Virus record (IMG/VR): IMGVR_UViG_3300025392_000294
Location: 1-60,480 of that record
Length of the DNA stretch: 60,480 nt
Strand: one strand, 5' to 3'
Origin: a virus
Taxonomy: Duplodnaviria > Caudoviricetes
Below, in pieces: positions 5,081 to 60,480 of the stretch (position 1 is its first letter; each line of letters begins with the position of its first letter). The translations under genes and the position numbers were made by a program. The notes below the pieces were generated by a model. The model was not told the origin of the DNA, made no database searches, and saw only the letters and a program-made list of their open reading frames with translations.

Positions 5081-6016
5081 ATGAACGAAGAATTTAAGTT
5101 TCCCGATGAAACCGAAGACACTTCCAGTCCCCAACAAGTTGAGGGGGAAGAGGAAATTGAAATTGAAATCATCGATGACACACCAGACCGGGATAAAGGC
5201 AAACAACCTTTAAACAAGGAAGTTGCCGATCCCACAGAGGACGAGATCGCCAGTTACTCACAGAATGTCCAAAGCCGCATCAAGGAATTGACGCACGCCA
5301 GACATGATGAGAGACGTAAAGCCGAGGCGGCCATGCGTGAAAAGCAAGAACTTGAGCACCTTACGCAACAGCTTTTAGAAGAGAACAAGTCTCTTAAAAA
5401 CAACGTGCAGCAAGGCCATCAAATTATTGCGTCTTCAGCCAAAGAGAAAGCAGAAGCAGATCTAATATTAGCTAGAAAACAGTATAAAGAAGCTCAAGAG
5501 GCCTACGATACTGACGCTATTATTGCTGCTCAAGAGGCTTTAACGGAGGCAAAATGGCGTATTGAGTCATTGAAAAATTACCGTCCCGCTTTACAAGAGC
5601 GTGAAAATCCGGTACAAACTCAACCTAGACAGACACAAACTGTTCAACCAGACGAAAAATCCCTGCGCTGGCAGGCAAAAAACCAGTGGTTTGGATCGAA
5701 CGGGTTTGAAGAAGTTACCAGCTTCGCACTAGGGCTGCATCAAAAACTGGTCAATTCGGGTATAGACCCGCGCTCCGATGAATACTATCAACAGATAGAT
5801 TCACGCATTAAGAACACGTTCCCGGAAGTATTCGGCGAACAAAAACCGGCACAAGCCGCAAAGCGTCCTTCGAATGTTGTTGCTCCAGCGTCTAGATCTA
5901 CGGGCGTAAAAAAGGTTCAACTGACTCCGACGCAAGCTGCGTTAGTGAAGAAGTTTAATCTTGATCCCAAGAAATATTACCTTGAACAACAGAAATTGGA
6001 GGCACAAAATGGTTGA
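5081..6016 (+). CDS. Capsid scaffolding protein
   Basis: Acidic N-terminus, coiled coil, position between portal and capsid. Confidence 0.7.
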   Translation: MNEEFKFPDETEDTSSPQQVEGEEEIEIEIIDDTPDRDKGKQPLNKEVADPTEDEIASYSQNVQSRIKELTHARHDERRKAEAAMREKQELEHLTQQLLEENKSLKNNVQQGHQIIASSAKEKAEADLILARKQYKEAQEAYDTDAIIAAQEALTEAKWRIESLKNYRPALQERENPVQTQPRQTQTVQPDEKSLRWQAKNQWFGSNGFEEVTSFALGLHQKLVNSGIDPRSDEYYQQIDSRIKNTFPEVFGEQKPAQAAKRPSNVVAPASRSTGVKKVQLTPTQAALVKKFNLDPKKYYLEQQKLEAQNG

Positions 6017-48274: not shown

Positions 48275-48443
48275 CTCTGACTTCCATCATTGCGTTTGCA
48301 AAGCCATAAGCTATGCGAGCAGTTGAGTATTCGTTAGCCGCGTCTCCATTGGCTATTAGTCCTTGAAGAGCCTGGGCGGCAAAATAGTCTCGCAAGCTCA
48401 TGCCGGTCTGTTCTGTATTGTTGGGGTTTGGGAATGCGTTCAC
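48258..48443 (-). CDS. Small phage protein (GMSLRDYFAA family)
   Basis: GTG start after AGGAG; AFP...GMSLRDYFAAQALQG. Confidence 0.65.
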   Translation of the reverse strand: MNAFPNPNNTEQTGMSLRDYFAAQALQGLIANGDAANEYSTARIAYGFANAMMEVRDEDNE

Positions 48444-48477
48444 TGTTTCTCCTGTAGAATGTTTGGTTGGGACACAC

Positions 48478-48506
48478 ATTGTATTAAATTAATTCATGTC
48501 TTGCAA
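48478..48506 (-). promoter_or_regulatory. Sigma70-like promoter for the recombination operon
   Basis: Minus strand TTGCAA-17 nt-TACAAT. Confidence 0.65.
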
Positions 48507-48514
48507 GGGAATTT

Positions 48515-48826
48515 ATGGCAACGTCCACAACACAGTTGAGTCTCAAGCACATGAGGGAGAGAGGGTTTTATGCGGAAGTCGTTGAAAGATTTAACTTTTT
48601 TACCAAGCGAAAGAATGATTTTGCTGGTTTCATTGACATACTTTGTCTGTCAGAAGGTGTGGTTGTGGGTGTCCAAACTACCTCCTATGGCAACACAAGC
48701 AGTAGGGTTAATAAGATCAAAGGCCACGAGAATTACCCAATCGTCCTCTCAGCGGGGATAAAGATCGAGGTGCATGGTTGGCGGAAAGTGGACAATCGTT
48801 GGCAAGTCAGAATTATTGAGTTATGA
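48515..48826 (+). CDS. Small PD-(D/E)XK nuclease / resolvase-like protein
   Basis: DFAGFIDILC...VGVQTTS...IEVHGWRK. Confidence 0.6.
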   Translation: MATSTTQLSLKHMRERGFYAEVVERFNFFTKRKNDFAGFIDILCLSEGVVVGVQTTSYGNTSSRVNKIKGHENYPIVLSAGIKIEVHGWRKVDNRWQVRIIEL

Positions 48827-48827
48827 T
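48799..48827 (+). promoter_or_regulatory. Sigma70-like promoter for the candidate antisense sRNA
   Basis: TTGGCA-17 nt-TATGAT inside the end of the upstream CDS. Confidence 0.6.
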
Positions 48828-48834
48828 TTGGTTT

Positions 48835-48895
48835 GTTTCCTGTAGTTGCTACTCCTTTGAGGGGTTTATCCCGGCCTAGTGTCGGGATTTTTTTT
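48835..48895 (+). ncRNA. Candidate trans-acting sRNA antisense to the early-gene RBS leaders
   Basis: 5' GUUUCCUGUAGUUGC is complementary to the consensus GCAACUAC..AGGAAAC leader; small hairpin; terminator ATCCCGGC/GTCGGGAT plus T run. Confidence 0.6.
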
Positions 48896-48910
48896 GTGCT
48901 AATATTTATC

Positions 48911-48994
48911 GTTGGCGAAGCGGATTAGCCCCGCGGGAATGCGTGAAATGTAAGAGTGTTGCTCATCCCGACCCTGCTTCATGGGAGCGCCAAC
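48911..48994 (+). ncRNA. Candidate structured small RNA
   Basis: Closing stem GTTGGCG/CGCCAAC with nested AAGCGG/CTGCTT and GGGAATG/CATCCC; extended -10 TGcTAATAT just upstream. Confidence 0.45.
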
Positions 48995-48997
48995 AAG

Positions 48998-49027
48998 TTG
49001 ACAGCGTTTTAAATAGTTTGATATACT
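48998..49027 (+). promoter_or_regulatory. Strong sigma70-like promoter for the replication-side operon
   Basis: TTGACA-18 nt-TATACT with TGn extension; -35 overlapped by CAACAAGTTG. Confidence 0.7.
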
Positions 49028-49033
49028 GCGCTC

Positions 49034-49150
49034 ACATTGGTGGGGATCAATGTAAAACCGTTTAGAGATGTATTCTGACTTTACCTAATAGCGGAGTGGC
49101 TTATTAGGCAAGGTATCCCCCAGAATGCATCGTCTAAGCGGTTTTTTTTT
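49034..49150 (+). terminator. Leader with long hairpin and T9 (attenuator-like)
   Basis: AAAACCGTTTAGA/TCTAAGCGGTTTT plus GATGTATTCTG/CAGAATGCATC, then T9. Confidence 0.55.
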
Positions 49151-49529
49151 CGTCCCTACACAATGTCGTACTCCGCACGTTAGCAAGCACCTGTATGGGT
49201 GGCGCGGAAGAGAACACGCGTATCGGCAAGACCAACCGGTGCGTTCTAGACTTGTTCAGGTACTAGAGCAGACATAAGTGATATGTGACCCAGCTTTGCA
49301 CTTATCTCGATGAATGAATCACTTCGGTGGATCGTCCAGTGATGGCCGGTCGTTAGCCAAAAAGCGGACAGAAGCGCCCTTTTGGTGGACACAGTGACCT
49401 ACAGCGCTCAGGAGGGCCCCCCAGTCACCCGGCATAGCTATGTCTAAAGCCGTTTTGTCTATTAGGGAAAACACCTAGAGACGCTTGTCTGTGTAACGTC
49501 CAAAATCACCTCCTCAACAAAGGAGAACT

Positions 49530-49718
49530 ATGGACACACACCCCACTGAAAGGCGCTTTCCGCGCACGCTGAACGAGGCGTTTCCACACACGATGGAGTA
49601 CGGCGCTTGTATTTTTATCTATCCACGAGCAAAGACTGGTTACGCTTATGTGGCGGTCACTCTTAGCGTGGCCATCGCTCTAGTCTTGATTGTGAGGAAC
49701 CTATGCATCCTTTCATAA
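49530..49718 (+). CDS. Small membrane protein
   Basis: AAGGAG RBS; RRFPRTLNEAFP; C-terminal TM. Confidence 0.65.
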   Translation: MDTHPTERRFPRTLNEAFPHTMEYGACIFIYPRAKTGYAYVAVTLSVAIALVLIVRNLCILS

Positions 49719-52095: not shown

Positions 52096-52846
52096 TTTAG
52101 AAAAAATCAGAATTGATGGTGACACACAATCAAGAGAGTCACTTAGGGAGGTAACGGTTCAAGAGTACACCGAGAAACTATTGGACGGCGAGGCATTCAC
52201 CGCCATCAGGATAGTTTACGATGGCAAGGACTGGTGGCTGGCCGATGGGTTTCACAGATACTTTGCTCACAAACGCGCAAAGATCAATACGATTGAGGCC
52301 GACATCATTAACGGCACAAAGCGCGATGCGTGGTTGTATTCATTGAAAGCCAACGGCAAGCATGGACTACCAAGATCGAACGAAGACAAGCGCAGAAGTG
52401 TGATGCGTGCTCTCAATGATATTGAGCTGTGTGATAAATCAAACATTGAGCTGGCAAAGATATGCGATGTATCAGACATGACGATCGGTCGCATTCGCAA
52501 AGAAATCGAGTTGTTGAAAGAGGTCAAGAAGAAACCAAAAGCCAAGCCTGTTGAGATTGAAGAGGAGTACGTTCAAGACGAAGTGCATGAGCTCCGCACA
52601 GAGAATCAGGCGCTACTCACAGAGAATACTAAACTCAGAGATCAGATGGCGATTGGTATTTTAGAAATCGATGACGAAGAAAAAATAACCATACAAGAAA
52701 CTGTGGAATCGTTGCGCGCTGAAGTTTCTCGCTTACAATCTTTATTGGACGCCATGACTATCAGTAGGAATGACTTCCAGCAAAAGGCTGCCGACGCTAT
52801 CAATCAAATCAAATATTGGAAACGTAAGGCAGAGAAATCAAAGTGA
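52085..52846 (+). CDS. ParB/Srx-fold protein with HTH and coiled coil
   Basis: LADGFHRY (GxxR), AN..HGLP, SN.ELAKICDVSDMTIGRIR helix-turn-helix. Confidence 0.75.
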   Translation: MKINLEKIRIDGDTQSRESLREVTVQEYTEKLLDGEAFTAIRIVYDGKDWWLADGFHRYFAHKRAKINTIEADIINGTKRDAWLYSLKANGKHGLPRSNEDKRRSVMRALNDIELCDKSNIELAKICDVSDMTIGRIRKEIELLKEVKKKPKAKPVEIEEEYVQDEVHELRTENQALLTENTKLRDQMAIGILEIDDEEKITIQETVESLRAEVSRLQSLLDAMTISRNDFQQKAADAINQIKYWKRKAEKSK

Positions 52847-52875
52847 AGTTGGGCACTATCCCATCGGAGTTTTAA

Positions 52876-56674: not shown

Positions 56675-56843
56675 GATTTTGGCCTCGTGTTGTTTGGTAA
56701 TCTTGCTCGATGATTTCGAGTTTTCTCTTAAACTCTGCTAAAAATTCAATTTTGTTCTTGTATCCCAGTGACTGGTACGATTGCCCATAGGACAGATCGC
56801 ACACGTCAAAGTAGAGCTCCTGAATGAGTGTGAGTGTGTTCAT
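56655..56843 (-). CDS. Small early protein
   Basis: ATGA overlap. Confidence 0.5.
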   Translation of the reverse strand: MNTLTLIQELYFDVCDLSYGQSYQSLGYKNKIEFLAEFKRKLEIIEQDYQTTRGQNHDTITN

Positions 56844-57058
56844 TTTCTCGCCCCCACCACGTCATCGATTGCAGAATTTATAGAATTCCAGTTAATGCCA
56901 ATTTCAGCATCGTGTGATTTAACGATGATCTCCAACACTTTGCGGGTTTCTTCTAGGGTGAGCTCCTCGCCAATCTGTTCGCACTGGTCTGTTATATCGT
57001 CCTCGCACCATTCATCACGGATAACCCATTGTTTCTCAGTCTTAATTAATCGTGCCAT
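56840..57058 (-). CDS. Small early protein
   Basis: AGGAGG RBS right after hammerhead 1; W..DDI...HDAEIGINW. Confidence 0.65.
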   Translation of the reverse strand: MARLIKTEKQWVIRDEWCEDDITDQCEQIGEELTLEETRKVLEIIVKSHDAEIGINWNSINSAIDDVVGARK

Positions 57059-57076
57059 TTTTGGCCTCCTGTAGTT

Positions 57077-57128
57077 GCACAAGACCCGCTCGCGCGGGTT
57101 TCGCCCAGTCAGGGCTCATCAGTTGCGC
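57077..57128 (-). ncRNA. Type I hammerhead ribozyme 1
   Basis: GCGCAA CUGAUGA GCCC-UGACU-GGGC GAAA CCCGC-GCGA-GCGGG UC/ UUGUGC; predicted cut 57083|57082. Confidence 0.92.
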
Positions 57129-57362
57129 TTAGACTATTTCCCATTTCAGATCAAAAACTGTCGGGTAGAGCTCTTGCGTGGTTTCGGGTTCGCCCACGGG
57201 CTTAACCCATACGCGACCGGTTGAGCCGTCATTGTGCGGGGGTCTCCCCCCAGTGAGCTCGAACTCTTCGCCGTTGCGGGTTTTGATGATCGCGCCCTTG
57301 GGGACTGCCACGCCATCCTTGTCCACCAGTAACCAGTTGTATTTTGTTGCTATAGTTGTCAT
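57129..57362 (-). CDS. Small early protein
   Basis: GGRPPH..GSTGRVWV...ELYPTVFDLKW; stop abuts the ribozyme. Confidence 0.65.
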   Translation of the reverse strand: MTTIATKYNWLLVDKDGVAVPKGAIIKTRNGEEFELTGGRPPHNDGSTGRVWVKPVGEPETTQELYPTVFDLKWEIV

Positions 57363-57541
57363 TCGTGTATCTCCAAAAATTGATCGTAATATTCGCGCTC
57401 GAGCGTGTTCAAGAGGTTAACCGGCTTGATGTAAGCTGGGTTTCCGGTCATGCCCATGTAGGTCATGGCCTCTTCTTGTGCCCTGTGCATTGTCTTAAAC
57501 TCGCCCAACAAGCGAGAATTGTGGTTAAAAACTAGATACAT
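57359..57541 (-). CDS. Small early protein
   Basis: GGAGG RBS; LGEFKT...A..EA..Y...TGNPAYI. Confidence 0.6.
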   Translation of the reverse strand: MYLVFNHNSRLLGEFKTMHRAQEEAMTYMGMTGNPAYIKPVNLLNTLEREYYDQFLEIHE

Positions 57542-57699
57542 GAGCGCGCCTCCAATCGACCGCGGTTAAAAAGAAACACGGCCTTGTTTTTGTGTTCCTG
57601 ATACTCGCGCGCAAGCATTCGTTGAAAGCGCGCCAGTTTAATGCGGTTTGTCTCAAAAAGATAACCGGCTTGTATGTAGTCAAACTCTGTATATTTCAT
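57532..57699 (-). CDS. Small early protein
   Basis: Hand-translated MKYTEFDYIQAGYLFE...; RBS after hammerhead 2. Confidence 0.6.
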   Translation of the reverse strand: MKYTEFDYIQAGYLFETNRIKLARFQRMLAREYQEHKNKAVFLFNRGRLEARSCI

Positions 57700-57715
57700 A
57701 ATTTCCCTTGTAGTT

Positions 57716-57767
57716 GCATGAGACCCCCTCTCGAGGGTTTCGGCCTCTCAGGCCTCATCAGTCATGC
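57716..57767 (-). ncRNA. Type I hammerhead ribozyme 2
   Basis: GCAUGA CUGAUGA GGCC-UGAGA-GGCC GAAA CCCUC-GAGA-GGGGG UC/ UCAUGC; predicted cut 57722|57721. Confidence 0.93.
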
Positions 57768-57915
57768 TTTTTTGAATGATCGCGTAAATTCGGGAAATCT
57801 CGGGCTCAGTCAAGTCAAGCTCGCGTGCAATTATTTGCTCGCTGGCAACGTGCTCAAGCGCGACACTTGCTATTTTCATGATGGCGATTAGTTCTTTTTT
57901 GGTTAAATTCTTCAT
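57748..57915 (-). CDS. Small early protein ending inside hammerhead 2
   Basis: Hand-translated MKNLTKKELIAIMK...KSMTDEA*. Confidence 0.55.
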   Translation of the reverse strand: MKNLTKKELIAIMKIASVALEHVASEQIIARELDLTEPEISRIYAIIQKSMTDEA

Positions 57916-57925
57916 GATTTCCCTT

Positions 57926-58573
57926 TTAGTGCATTAAGTAAGATACAGTTTTATTCGTCCAGCAAGCGCGACAGTCGCGACACTCGCCGGCTTGGCTGGG
58001 GGCTTTACAGGCGAGCCCTAGAGGCTTTTTAGTGTGGACGTTGGACGTTGTCACGCCTCGCACGCCTTCGAGGCTCTTGGGTACCTTCACGGCCTTGTCG
58101 GGATACATACCGGAGAGCCGGACAATCAAGTTTTTGGGGATTACTCCACCGGCTGAGATAAAGTCTTTGATGATCGAGTACTCGCGCGTTGGAAGCCAGT
58201 GTTTTGTTTTCGGCGTCAATTGTGCGATTTCTACGATCTTTTTAAAGTGTTCAAGCCCCTGAAGGTCGCCGGAATCGTGCCATCTAAAGTACTGATCCGA
58301 ACCGATTAGAGTCACCATCGCGTCCACCCAGTGAGGATCATTGATTGAGTCTAATCTAGCAAATTGGGCGGGTTTAATGGTGTTCTGATAAAGTTGGTAG
58401 AAGCCGGAATTAGCGTAGCAGTAAAAACAGATCGATCCCTCAATTTGAGCCATTTTGAAACCGGTCGCGCACGCCTCGGTCGGTAGACTGTAAGACTTGC
58501 ATGGCATCTTCGAGGTTTCGGTGAGCCCACCAGTGAGCGCGCTCGCCTCTTTTTTCAACATAATTACTCGCAT
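57926..58573 (-). CDS. Gp88-like Cys-rich protein (radical-SAM-related)
   Basis: SKMPC.SYSLP...C...CFYCYA, YFRWHDSGD, HWLPTRE, CRDCRACW. Confidence 0.7.
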   Translation of the reverse strand: MRVIMLKKEASALTGGLTETSKMPCKSYSLPTEACATGFKMAQIEGSICFYCYANSGFYQLYQNTIKPAQFARLDSINDPHWVDAMVTLIGSDQYFRWHDSGDLQGLEHFKKIVEIAQLTPKTKHWLPTREYSIIKDFISAGGVIPKNLIVRLSGMYPDKAVKVPKSLEGVRGVTTSNVHTKKPLGLACKAPSQAGECRDCRACWTNKTVSYLMH

Positions 58574-58576
58574 GGC

Positions 58577-58753
58577 TTAACCCTCAATTAGTTGGTACAT
58601 ATTCCACCCGCACGTTACAACGTGCGACCCGCCCTTGATTAATTCGTCGATCATGGAGCGGTCGAAATCGTGCCAGCCGTCCCAATCGATAGGGTGGCGA
58701 CATATCTCGCGCCAGCCGTGGCGCTCATGTTTTGCGTGGTAAGCGATAACCAT
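58577..58753 (-). CDS. Small early protein
   Basis: Hand-translated MVIAYHAKHERHGWREIC...; AAGGA RBS after hammerhead 3. Confidence 0.6.
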   Translation of the reverse strand: MVIAYHAKHERHGWREICRHPIDWDGWHDFDRSMIDELIKGGSHVVTCGWNMYQLIEG

Positions 58754-58774
58754 GGTTTTGTTTCCTTAGTAGTT

Positions 58775-58827
58775 GCATAAGACTGGCACAAGTGCCAGTT
58801 TCGCCCATTAGGGCTCGTCAGTTATGC
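58775..58827 (-). ncRNA. Type I hammerhead ribozyme 3
   Basis: GCAUAA CUGACGA GCCC-UAAU-GGGC GAAA CUGGCA-CUUG-UGCCAG UC/ UUAUGC; predicted cut 58781|58780. Confidence 0.93.
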
Positions 58828-59055
58828 TACTTGGGGCTCGTATTCCTCCACCAGTTCGACCAATGCTTTCATGGCTTCTACGATGGTATTGAAGTGGCAC
58901 TCTTCGTTGTTGAGGTCTTTGAGGTAATATCCGGTGATTGGGCCTGTTGAAATCCAAATGGAATAAATCAGCGATCCATATTCGTCCATGTCATCAACAA
59001 TTTGATAGGAGTTGTTGAGTTCGCATGATTCGAAGTTTACGATTACATTGTTCAT
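58822..59055 (-). CDS. Small early protein
   Basis: Start MNNVIV after the AAGGA RBS; UAA stop lies in stem I of hammerhead 3. Confidence 0.6.
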   Translation of the reverse strand: MNNVIVNFESCELNNSYQIVDDMDEYGSLIYSIWISTGPITGYYLKDLNNEECHFNTIVEAMKALVELVEEYEPQVA

Positions 59056-59075
59056 TTTTGTTTCCTTGGTTAGTT

Positions 59076-59127
59076 GCATAAGACGCCCTTTCGGGCGTTT
59101 CGTCCAATCAGGACTCATCAGTTATGC
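59076..59127 (-). ncRNA. Type I hammerhead ribozyme 4
   Basis: GCAUAA CUGAUGA GUCC-UGAUU-GGAC GAAA CGCCC-GAAA-GGGCG UC/ UUAUGC; predicted cut 59082|59081. Confidence 0.95.
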
Positions 59128-59332
59128 TTGGCAGTACTGGCAAGGGCAAACCCTCACATCTGAATTCTGCATGGGTGAAACCGCGGTTCTTGGCGTAAGT
59201 CAACGCATTGGCGCGCGCCTCGACCAAATCATTGGACATAAAGCCGGTAATGAGTCGACCGCGGTAGAAAAGATCAACACAGTATCCGCGCCCACCATAG
59301 GGCTGATATATTTTTAATTGAACGGTTTTCAT
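59108..59332 (-). CDS. Small early protein ending inside hammerhead 4
   Basis: ...PSITDES*; RBS after hammerhead 5. Confidence 0.6.
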   Translation of the reverse strand: MKTVQLKIYQPYGGRGYCVDLFYRGRLITGFMSNDLVEARANALTYAKNRGFTHAEFRCEGLPLPVLPSITDES

Positions 59333-59349
59333 TGGTTTCCTTAGTAGTT

Positions 59350-59401
59350 GTGTGAGACCGGCTCTCGCCGGTTTCGGTCAATCAGACCTCATCAGTCACA
59401 C
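59350..59401 (-). ncRNA. Type I hammerhead ribozyme 5
   Basis: GUGUGA CUGAUGA GGUC-UGAUU-GACC GAAA CCGGC-GAGA-GCCGG UC/ UCACAC; predicted cut 59356|59355. Confidence 0.95.
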
Positions 59402-59693
59402 TGGTGGGCATAAAGCGCTTGAATAGGTCTTGGAAGGCCTGAATCAACAACCAGCGGTTGTGAGAGTCGGCGCATTGGTAGGCGTCGCCAATAGCACCGG
59501 CAAACGATCCACCGGATTCGCGCATGACCCTCGAGGCGGTGTGAAATGGGTCGTTAATGTCGAACCAGTGTTGCAGTGAGTCGAAACAGCGATCGTTGAC
59601 GCTGACGCCGGTCAAGTCGCAAAGGAACATGGTTTGCTCACTGGTAGAGTGATATTCAATTAAGTTATCGATTGTTTTGAATTGTGAATACAT
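59382..59693 (-). CDS. First early-operon protein, ending inside hammerhead 5
   Basis: GGSFA.AIG.AY..AD..N...L..AF; ...TSVTDEV*. Confidence 0.65.
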   Translation of the reverse strand: MYSQFKTIDNLIEYHSTSEQTMFLCDLTGVSVNDRCFDSLQHWFDINDPFHTASRVMRESGGSFAGAIGDAYQCADSHNRWLLIQAFQDLFKRFMPTSVTDEV

Positions 59694-59783
59694 AGTGTTG
59701 TTTCCTTAGTTGTTGTTGAAAATATGAGGCTCTGTTTTTGATACCCCATACCTTATATGTGGAAAAAATCGTGCCAGCGCTTG

Positions 59784-59796
59784 TAAGTTGTTGATT
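59784..59796 (-). promoter_or_regulatory. IHF consensus site
   Basis: AATCAACAACTTA fits WATCAANNNNTTR; lies between the divergent early operon and terS. Confidence 0.55.
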
Positions 59797-59888
59797 TATA
59801 AGGGAGTCTATTTGATTTTGGGGGTGATTGTGGGTTCAGACGTTTCGGTTTATACTCATGCAATCCAACAAGTTGGGGGTCACACACC

Positions 59889-60480
59889 ATGCCGGAAACA
59901 AGTAAGCGCGCGCCAGTCAAAAGATTATCGAGGGCGCAAATCAAAGATACACTAGACAACACACCCATCGAGAGCATATTAGGTGTAAAACAACCGCTCA
60001 CCAGTAAACAGAGAGAGTACGCGCATAAGGTAGCACAAGGTGTCATGAGTAAGAGAGAGGCATACAAGACAACGTATAACGCCCAAAGCGAGCATACACT
60101 GAACAATGCGCCTTATATGCTGGCGAGGGACTCAAGAGTGTCAAAAGAAATAGAGGCGTACAGGCTGGCAATAGAGGCGGAGAAACTGCGAACCCCCGTT
60201 CAACTGAAGGCTTTGCTAATCCACCAGCTAGTCAAGCATTCCATCGATGAGGACTTCCCACCAGCCCAGCGAATGAAGGCGCTCGAGTTGATTGGCAAAC
60301 TCTACGAAGTGGGCGCCTTCGAAGAGCGCAAGACCACCACAGTGATTCATCAAAAGAGCGGAGACATCAAAGCCCAGCTACTCGAGCGCATCAAGGCGGT
60401 CGTTGATGTGAGCGCAAAGCCGGCGCGTACCGGAGGCGCGAGTCTACTGGCGGAGATTTCAGAGGCGCTCGACCCCACCC
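59889..60480 (+). CDS. terS: Probable terminase small subunit (runs off the window end; not in the ORF track)
   Basis: Hand-translated MPETSKR...LTSKQREYAHKVAQG.MSKREAYK..Y...RMKALELIGK; would precede terL if circular. Confidence 0.65.
   Translation, partial: MPETSKRAPVKRLSRAQIKDTLDNTPIESILGVKQPLTSKQREYAHKVAQGVMSKREAYKTTYNAQSEHTLNNAPYMLARDSRVSKEIEAYRLAIEAEKLRTPVQLKALLIHQLVKHSIDEDFPPAQRMKALELIGKLYEVGAFEERKTTTVIHQKSGDIKAQLLERIKAVVDVSAKPARTGGASLLAEISEALDPT

Follow-up and report, generated by a model that had tools for sequence, protein, structure and literature searches.

Does the short stretch behind a small nuclease gene of an uncultured freshwater phage encode a small RNA (sRNA) that acts on the phage's own mRNAs? 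The DNA in question is IMG/VR virus record IMGVR_UViG_3300025392_000294 (Duplodnaviria; Caudoviricetes), and the window, meaning the whole stretch analysed, is the entire phage genome of 60,480 bp, rated complete. The candidate sRNA unit lies at 48799-48895 on the plus strand. Far from it, on the minus strand, five type-I hammerhead ribozymes are found from 59401 to 57077 in an operon of small genes. A preliminary description of this DNA, made from its letters alone, proposed that the 5' seed of the sRNA is antisense to a leader that the ribozyme-released mRNAs have in common. Judged from the sequence of the locus and of its relatives, the candidate in all likelihood exists as an RNA. The favoured reading, held with restrained confidence, is that it covers the Shine-Dalgarno (SD) sequence of mRNAs of the phage itself and so represses their translation, with six leaders as targets in this genome.

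The promoter, seed, hairpin and terminator of the unit (Table 1) lie exactly where the preliminary description placed them, and together they predict a discrete plus-strand RNA of 61-62 nucleotides (nt) with two hairpins and a free seed. The -10 hexamer overlaps the TGA stop of the nuclease open reading frame (ORF), 48515-48826 (+). Taken alone the promoter is not significant, with 6 promoter-like sites in 3 kb against 2.8 ± 1.6 expected. The first 7 nt of the seed are CU-rich and of anti-SD character, the last 8 nt are phage-specific, and the computed cost of opening the whole seed is 0.23 kcal/mol. A second CU-rich stretch is formed by the 5' arm and loop of hairpin 1. The terminator is common to the sRNA unit and the upstream nuclease gene, and the 5' end of the RNA may come from a start at its own promoter or from a cut in the nuclease mRNA. 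Known sRNAs embedded in 3' untranslated regions (UTRs), such as DapZ and MicL of enterobacteria, likewise start from a promoter within the final part of a protein-coding gene and have a terminator in common with it; these are host chromosomal and have host targets. No Rfam family matches the window at gathering score. A small ORF at 48833-48928 was considered as coding and rejected, since indels of 1-4 nt are spread over it in relatives.

All five hammerheads of the minus strand have a complete core (CUGAnGA, GAAA and the cleavage triplet) and three stems, with stem I open. In each case the shared leader begins 4-6 nt past the cleavage site and runs into the SD, and the first two bases of the target leaders belong to stem I. 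The first gene of the operon has the same leader without a ribozyme. The sequences of the six leaders and five ribozymes are as they had been written in the preliminary description. Rfam lists three of the five ribozymes (scores in Table 1), none at gathering score, which is 34 for RF00163 and 52 for RF02275. Close relatives of the phage carry 3-4 hammerheads each.

The complementarity between seed and leaders is specific within this genome. When duplexes were scanned over the whole genome on both strands, the two best non-self matches of the seed were the leaders at ~57090 and ~58785. Among 111 crudely called translation starts (translation initiation regions, TIRs; duplex energies here and below in kcal/mol), the six leaders take ranks 1-6, with energies of -25.6 to -16.9, and the next TIR reaches -15.5; the best predicted targets are exactly the six that had been named beforehand. 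The summed energy of -119.2 was reached by none of 1000 shuffles of the seed (shuffle mean -53.7, standard deviation 9.0, best -94.3). The ranking was not reproduced by either half of the seed alone, by two sister-clade seeds or by the reversed seed. All six duplexes cover the SD. The seed pairs over its full 15 nt with the leader at 57078-57064, through 13 Watson-Crick and 2 G-U pairs (2 mismatches by plain complement). Since the six leaders share one motif, the result is to be read as one good match to a repeated element and not as six independent events.

Table 1. Predicted features of the candidate sRNA and of its target leaders (duplex energies in kcal/mol, ranks among the called TIRs)
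Feature	Position	Strand	Remarks
Sigma-70-like promoter	-35 48799-48804, inside nuclease ORF; -10 48822-48827	+	17-nt spacer, 10/12 consensus matches
5' single-stranded seed, 15 nt	48835-48849	+	Unpaired in minimum-free-energy (MFE) fold
Hairpin 1	48851-48865	+	6 pairs including G-U, MFE fold
Intrinsic terminator	48868-48895	+	8-pair stem-loop 48868-48888, then U run to 48895
Predicted target 1: leader and SD of first small gene (ATG 59693), no ribozyme upstream	59700-59712	-	Duplex -16.9, rank 6/111
Predicted target 2: leader after hammerhead 59401-59350 (ATG 59332)	59335-59352	-	Duplex -17.1, rank 5
Predicted target 3: leader after hammerhead 59127-59076 (ATG 59055)	59061-59078	-	Duplex -18.4, rank 4; ribozyme 30.0 bits, RF00163
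Predicted target 4: leader after hammerhead 58827-58775 (ATG 58753)	58761-58777	-	Duplex -22.2, rank 2; ribozyme 27.2 bits, RF00163
Predicted target 5: leader after hammerhead 57767-57716 (ATG 57699)	57703-57718	-	Duplex -19.0, rank 3; ribozyme core by pattern
Predicted target 6: leader after hammerhead 57128-57077 (ATG 57058)	57064-57078	-	Duplex -25.6, rank 1; ribozyme 23.3 bits, RF02275

Two further sites near the nuclease gene were compared with the seed. Regulation of the nuclease by its own 3' UTR was rejected, its TIR lying outside the 20 best duplexes. The TIR of a small gene divergent from the nuclease, at 48443-48479 (-), forms ~10 contiguous pairs with the seed (-14.6, rank 9), and in loci L095 and L097, which have a variant seed, the equivalent TIR pairs with that seed at -15.8. 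This TIR is a possible seventh target, as far as pairing can tell.

Relatives of the locus were collected by a search with the nuclease protein, which returned 30 IMG/VR loci, 80 JGI loci and 1 contig in a metagenome-assembled genome (MAG) labelled uncultured Burkholderiales. The sRNA unit is found directly after the nuclease gene in almost all loci down to ~70% protein identity, and looser versions of it down to ~55-65%. There are 35 distinct RNA sequences, and the computed fold of 28 of them has at least 6 unpaired nt at the 5' end, followed by two hairpins. The -10, TAnnAT (positions 1, 2, 5 and 6), is invariant in 17/17 aligned relatives; it is kept while the codons beneath it differ between clades, and the stops TGA, TAA and TAG are all found. 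The 17-nt spacing between -35 and -10 is identical in both clades. The -35 itself varies among relatives and encodes conserved residues, and is little informative. Downstream of the -10 the seed is conserved while the spacer that separates the two varies. In the close clade (11 distinct sequences), 7 consecutive bases within the last 8 nt of the seed are invariant; the CU-rich part on the 5' side differs in both length and sequence.

The structure is supported by covariation in the sister clade, which has ~70-75% identity in the nuclease protein. Its 19 distinct sequences give 95.5% standard pairs over all pair cells, and 6 of the 13 pairs show changes on both sides, a level reached in 0 of 500 column shuffles; slid controls gave at most 2. 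Of the 4 pairs in the sister-clade counterpart of hairpin 1, 3 show compensatory changes; some close relatives have hairpin 1 replaced, or lack it. G-U pairs, which are mismatches on the opposite strand, are frequent, and only on the plus strand does a U run lie 3' of the hairpin. The locus very likely encodes a structured RNA read from the plus strand, whose free 5' end is conserved. A model of the RNA (R1) finds one copy in each of the sister-clade genomes G003-G005, and the locus is phage-borne. The same model barely links the two clades (19 bits for the copy of close-clade genome G001, none for the window at E ≤ 1), and homology between the clades rests on synteny and layout rather than on score.

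A few relatives are of interest in themselves. In L025 (3692-3813) and L027 (3718-3838), at ~55% nuclease identity, the place of the sRNA holds an RF02932 Betaproteobacteria-1 RNA (87.6 and 82.9 bits), and in L009 the equivalent intergenic region has a tRNA gene. In L073, a different phage lineage with only a GP88-like early gene in common, an RNA-like unit at 5610-5661 (-) lies antisense to the early region. Its 5' end is CU-rich and is followed by a hairpin and a terminator, and it scores 25 bits (E 0.016) with the sister-clade model. The nuclease gene is absent from ten IMG/VR contigs that also have the GP88-like early gene.

In the sister clade the RNA appears to have another partner. Hammerheads are absent there by pattern and by RF00163, except for one in G003, and the 5' end of the RNA complements the ribosome site of the helicase gene, from the SD through the base before the AUG. 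The first 10-11 nt are an exact complement of the helicase site in two lineage types and have one bulged base in two more. The 4-5 bases between helicase SD and AUG vary by lineage, and the first bases of the RNA vary in a matching way. A lineage of the close clade, L095/L097, also pairs over 9-10 bp with its helicase site. The cognate assignment of seeds to helicase sites was the best of 120 permutations, a test which, like the others of its kind below, ignores shared descent. Among all TIRs of a genome, that of the helicase ranks 1/134 for the genome's own seed in G003 and 2/122 in G004. Neither the window nor G001 retains this complementarity at the helicase site, and in both the seed matches the ribozyme-released leaders instead. 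The RNA of this family tracks phage ribosome sites, by base complementarity, as expected of a base-pairing translational regulator. As a separate observation, a short hairpin stands just upstream of the helicase SD in all clades (~52845-52875 (+) in the window, and the leaders of L038, L039 and L040); it could be a processing or pause site.

For the hammerhead leaders the comparison within the close clade comprises three genomes that have both parts. In G001 its own seed ranks hammerhead and first-gene leaders 1, 2, 3 and 5 of 124 TIRs. Several results weigh against the proposal that the sRNA represses these mRNAs, or against its extension to relatives. When the seeds and leaders of the three genomes were crossed (3 x 3), own seeds were on average no better than foreign ones: the window's seed gave -20.2 with its own leaders and -20.2 with those of G001, and G002 gave -14.9 with its own and -15.5 otherwise. 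The seed change in G001 weakens the duplex with one leader, itself unchanged, by 7.5 kcal and strengthens that with another by the same amount. L001 and L041, half-genome contigs from the same sample and likely one genome, keep the window's seed with one leader different. In L104 and L172 the phage-specific block is at the 5' end and the CU-rich stretch comes after it, an order that does not allow a single continuous helix with leaders of the window's type. On the helicase side, two lineages added as a test of the prediction had no exact complement. One (L015) pairs over 7 bp and fits another lineage's seed better, and the other (L006) pairs over 5-6 bp. With added lineages the cognate score was reached by 10/720, 26/5040 and 178/40320 permutations, and shared descent is a caution for all of them. 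The helicase TIR of G005 is only tied 5th-6th of 130, that of the window is not complementary to its seed (-3.7), and the gene calls behind all TIR sets are crude. The preliminary claim that an RNA acting in trans covers the SD is thus sustained as a general mechanism by the tracking of helicase sites in relatives; for the hammerhead leaders in particular, the three-genome matrix gives no advantage to a phage's own seed.

The favoured reading can be put as a sequence of events. The stretch 48835-48895 would encode a phage sRNA of ~61 nt acting in trans, transcribed from the promoter in the last nuclease codons and ended at the intrinsic terminator of the nuclease gene. Its CU-rich anti-SD part and its 8-nt phage-specific part would together base-pair with six mRNAs of small genes on the opposite strand, each across leader and SD. 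Five of these mRNAs would be released from a polycistronic transcript by the hammerheads, and would begin 4-6 nt upstream of the target. With the SD covered, binding of the 30S subunit and translation would be blocked, and the duplex of 13-17 bp may also mark the RNA for decay. The anatomy, the conservation, the structural covariation, the target specificity in this genome and the covariation with helicase sites in sister phages are observed; production of the RNA, its repressive effect and its timing are what we infer.

More tentatively, the sRNA and the ribozymes may be parts of one all-RNA module in a probably virulent phage. The hammerheads would cut the transcript into monocistronic mRNAs with 5'-OH ends and a private leader tag, and one sRNA of the host's double-hairpin anti-SD design would shut the set off, and might tune cleavage via stem I. 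The same scaffold would have been re-aimed by seed evolution between helicase and ribozyme-released genes. We consider this larger picture possible, at a level clearly below that given to repression itself.

Several sRNAs and sequence elements described elsewhere resemble parts of this system; they are taken here from the accessible portions of the cited papers. The closest in form are the double-hairpin RNAs of RF02278 (Betaproteobacteria toxic small RNA), which include ncS03, ncS05, ncS27 and ncS62 of Burkholderia cenocepacia, are 57-67 nt long and have CU-rich unpaired regions complementary to ribosome-binding sites (RBSs) (PMC5688073). The phage unit has the size and the two hairpins of this family as well as a CU-rich anti-RBS stretch. 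The layout is alike throughout: within ~60 nt, an unpaired CU-rich 5' end leads to a small hairpin, which a U-rich linker connects to the terminator hairpin, and the 5' ends align in the Rfam model. The score for 48834-48895 is 24.7 bits against a gathering score of 50, and the RF02278 model finds no match at E ≤ 10 in 10 related loci, sister-clade copies included. The phage RNA is laid out like the RF02278 family and is not a member by Rfam's criterion. It also differs in being single-copy, where RF02278 RNAs are present as several dispersed chromosomal copies per Burkholderia genome, in having a seed extended by a phage-private 8-nt block, and in that its predicted targets are the phage's own mRNAs. 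The MAG (G016) that holds a relative of the nuclease-sRNA pair (L172) has a genuine RF02278 RNA at C91:10574-10637 (-), locus L173, of 51.5 bits; model R1 gives this RNA 19.1 bits (E 0.3). The host order is probably Burkholderiales, and the presence of an RF02278 RNA in the same MAG suggests, at most, that the phage copies a host sRNA design.

These likenesses are also what speaks for a different task of the RNA. It may be a copy or mimic of host anti-SD double-hairpin sRNAs of the RF02278 type that works mainly on host mRNAs and damps host genes with a strong SD, its complementarity to phage leaders being secondary. Size and layout match, the 5' ends align (UGUnUCC), the only relative in the genome collection is in a MAG labelled uncultured Burkholderiales with a true RF02278 RNA, and the sister-clade seeds have a generic CUCCUU core. 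We nevertheless regard host mRNAs as an unlikely main target, since the variable 5'-most seed bases track phage ribosome sites and 8 bases of the window's seed are unrelated to an SD, yet match the phage leader block. Action on host and on phage mRNAs is compatible, and the one does not exclude the other.

Pairing with the leaders could also have an outcome other than simple repression: the sRNA would protect or stabilise the 5'-OH mRNAs, or would enter the last 2 bp of stem I and thereby modulate hammerhead cleavage. The position of the target, close to the end made by cleavage and with two bases in stem I, is suited to such a role, and the cost of opening the target differs between the uncleaved and the cleaved state. 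The computed cost falls from 1.0-11.1 to 0.5-6.8 kcal/mol on cleavage, a drop of 0.3-4.8, which is modest beside duplexes of -17 to -26. The earlier proposal that cleavage exposes the target, whose first bases are in stem I, receives weak support at most. Protection or modulation of cleavage has a low probability in our view: the SD is covered in 6/6 duplexes, an arrangement that blocks initiation in established mechanisms of sRNA action, no more than 2 of the 6 pairs of stem I are affected, and sister-clade phages use the same RNA on a helicase leader that has no ribozyme.

That there is no regulator at all, the locus being a nuclease 3' UTR with its terminator and the complementarity due to chance or left over from a leader cassette inverted onto the minus strand, has little to recommend it: the promoter match alone is not above background, the upstream gene needs a terminator anyway and the minus strand does read as the leader motif, but the seed is conserved next to a variable spacer and the -10 is kept over three stop codons, no shuffle reaches the observed energy, the seed covaries with the helicase TIR, and the minus strand has no start codon after the motif, turns the G-U pairs into mismatches and lacks a U run after the hairpin. 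The minus strand of the locus was also considered as the site of a relic hammerhead, and this was rejected, with no hammerhead model matching at E ≤ 10.

Among phage systems the nearest functional precedent is c4 of P1 and P7, a phage RNA that pairs in trans around the RBS of a phage mRNA and blocks translation, with short complementary blocks that set specificity and differ between related phages (PMC12197685). Both RNAs are phage-encoded, and the one described here would likewise act on RBSs in trans. In c4, which provides immunity in temperate phages, the pairing bases are in loops (PMC12197685); here the seed is a free 5' end, six mRNAs are predicted as targets and no integrase was found. 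The role in immunity that the preliminary description had allowed for is unlikely, because neither a tyrosine nor a serine integrase was found in this genome, rated complete. Among 13 Rfam matches at E ≤ 10 for 48780-48920, there is no phage antisense family. A ParB-like gene is also present in the genome, with which either lifestyle of the phage would be compatible.

The ribozymes have precedents as well. Clustered type-I hammerheads between short phage and prophage genes have been proposed to cut long transcripts into gene-length mRNAs (Perreault et al. 2011, PMC3088659). No leader shared after cleavage and no partner RNA is reported for those clusters in the accessible text of that paper, whereas here a common leader is mirrored by a separate RNA. 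The SAS and ESAS elements of Cluster K mycobacteriophages are a private conserved tag that overlaps the SD of some non-structural genes, with single copies in reverse orientation and with the question of an RNA or protein reader left open (Pope et al. 2011, PMC3203893). These have another tag in other phages and another host phylum, and the available text describes no cognate RNA for them (PMC3203893). In the literature searched, to the extent that its text was accessible, a phage sRNA paired with hammerhead-released leaders was not found described. The claim of an undescribed kind of system was too wide, as the anti-SD double-hairpin architecture of the sRNA is known and ribosome sites are already established targets of phage antisense RNAs, c4 among them.

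Very few sRNAs of lytic-type phages have a known function. Surveys give dozens of candidate phage non-coding RNAs with no target, as far as their accessible text goes (PMC10914365; PMC12197685). The present case offers one small RNA with a specific predicted target set, unique genome-wide, in its own phage, and natural variants of seed and target in relatives, which make the pairing directly testable by compensatory mutations. If the reading is true, the hammerhead clusters of phages, an open question as to their purpose since 2011 (PMC3088659), would gain a functional partner, and a phage would be seen to borrow the design of host anti-SD sRNAs.

The gene in whose 3' end the sRNA promoter lies encodes a protein of 103 amino acids with no family match in Pfam or PHROG. 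Its AF2 model has a predicted local distance difference test score (pLDDT) of 93.7, and the best matches of the model in the PDB are archaeal Holliday-junction resolvases (Hjc; E 3.7e-4, TM ~0.5). By this high-confidence structure prediction the protein is a PD-(D/E)xK nuclease of Hjc-like Holliday-junction-resolvase fold. Its invariant residues include E24, D35, D41, Q54, T56, R64 and K67, and the fold agrees with the neighbouring Erf and exonuclease genes. The gene had also been considered as an RNA chaperone partner of the sRNA, and this was rejected because of the Hjc-like fold. No match to GenBank phages was returned by DNA similarity searches with 48400-49600 and 56800-60000, in a collection from which close records may be absent.

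The description of the small-gene operon as early was assumed from gene size and position and keeps that standing; a simple scan for sigma-70-like promoters upstream of it found none. Upstream of the first small gene, at 59761-59776 (-), there is a TGGCAC word and, 5 nt on, a T-rich stretch, which we take to be loosely like a sigma-54 promoter of the -24/-12 type.

A second sRNA-like unit is found 100 nt downstream of the first, at 48998-49150 (+). Its promoter (48998-49027; 11/12, with TG) is the strongest sigma-70-like match of the region, and is followed by a long imperfect hairpin at ~49050-49150 with a U run at its end. The promoter and the terminator-like end of this unit align in several close relatives. 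The surrounding ORF-free stretch, 48896-49530 (630 nt), also has a non-coding block at ~49160-49300 (+) that is kept from the close clade to the sister clade. It has no family match in Rfam, and could represent either another structured RNA or an element of the origin type.

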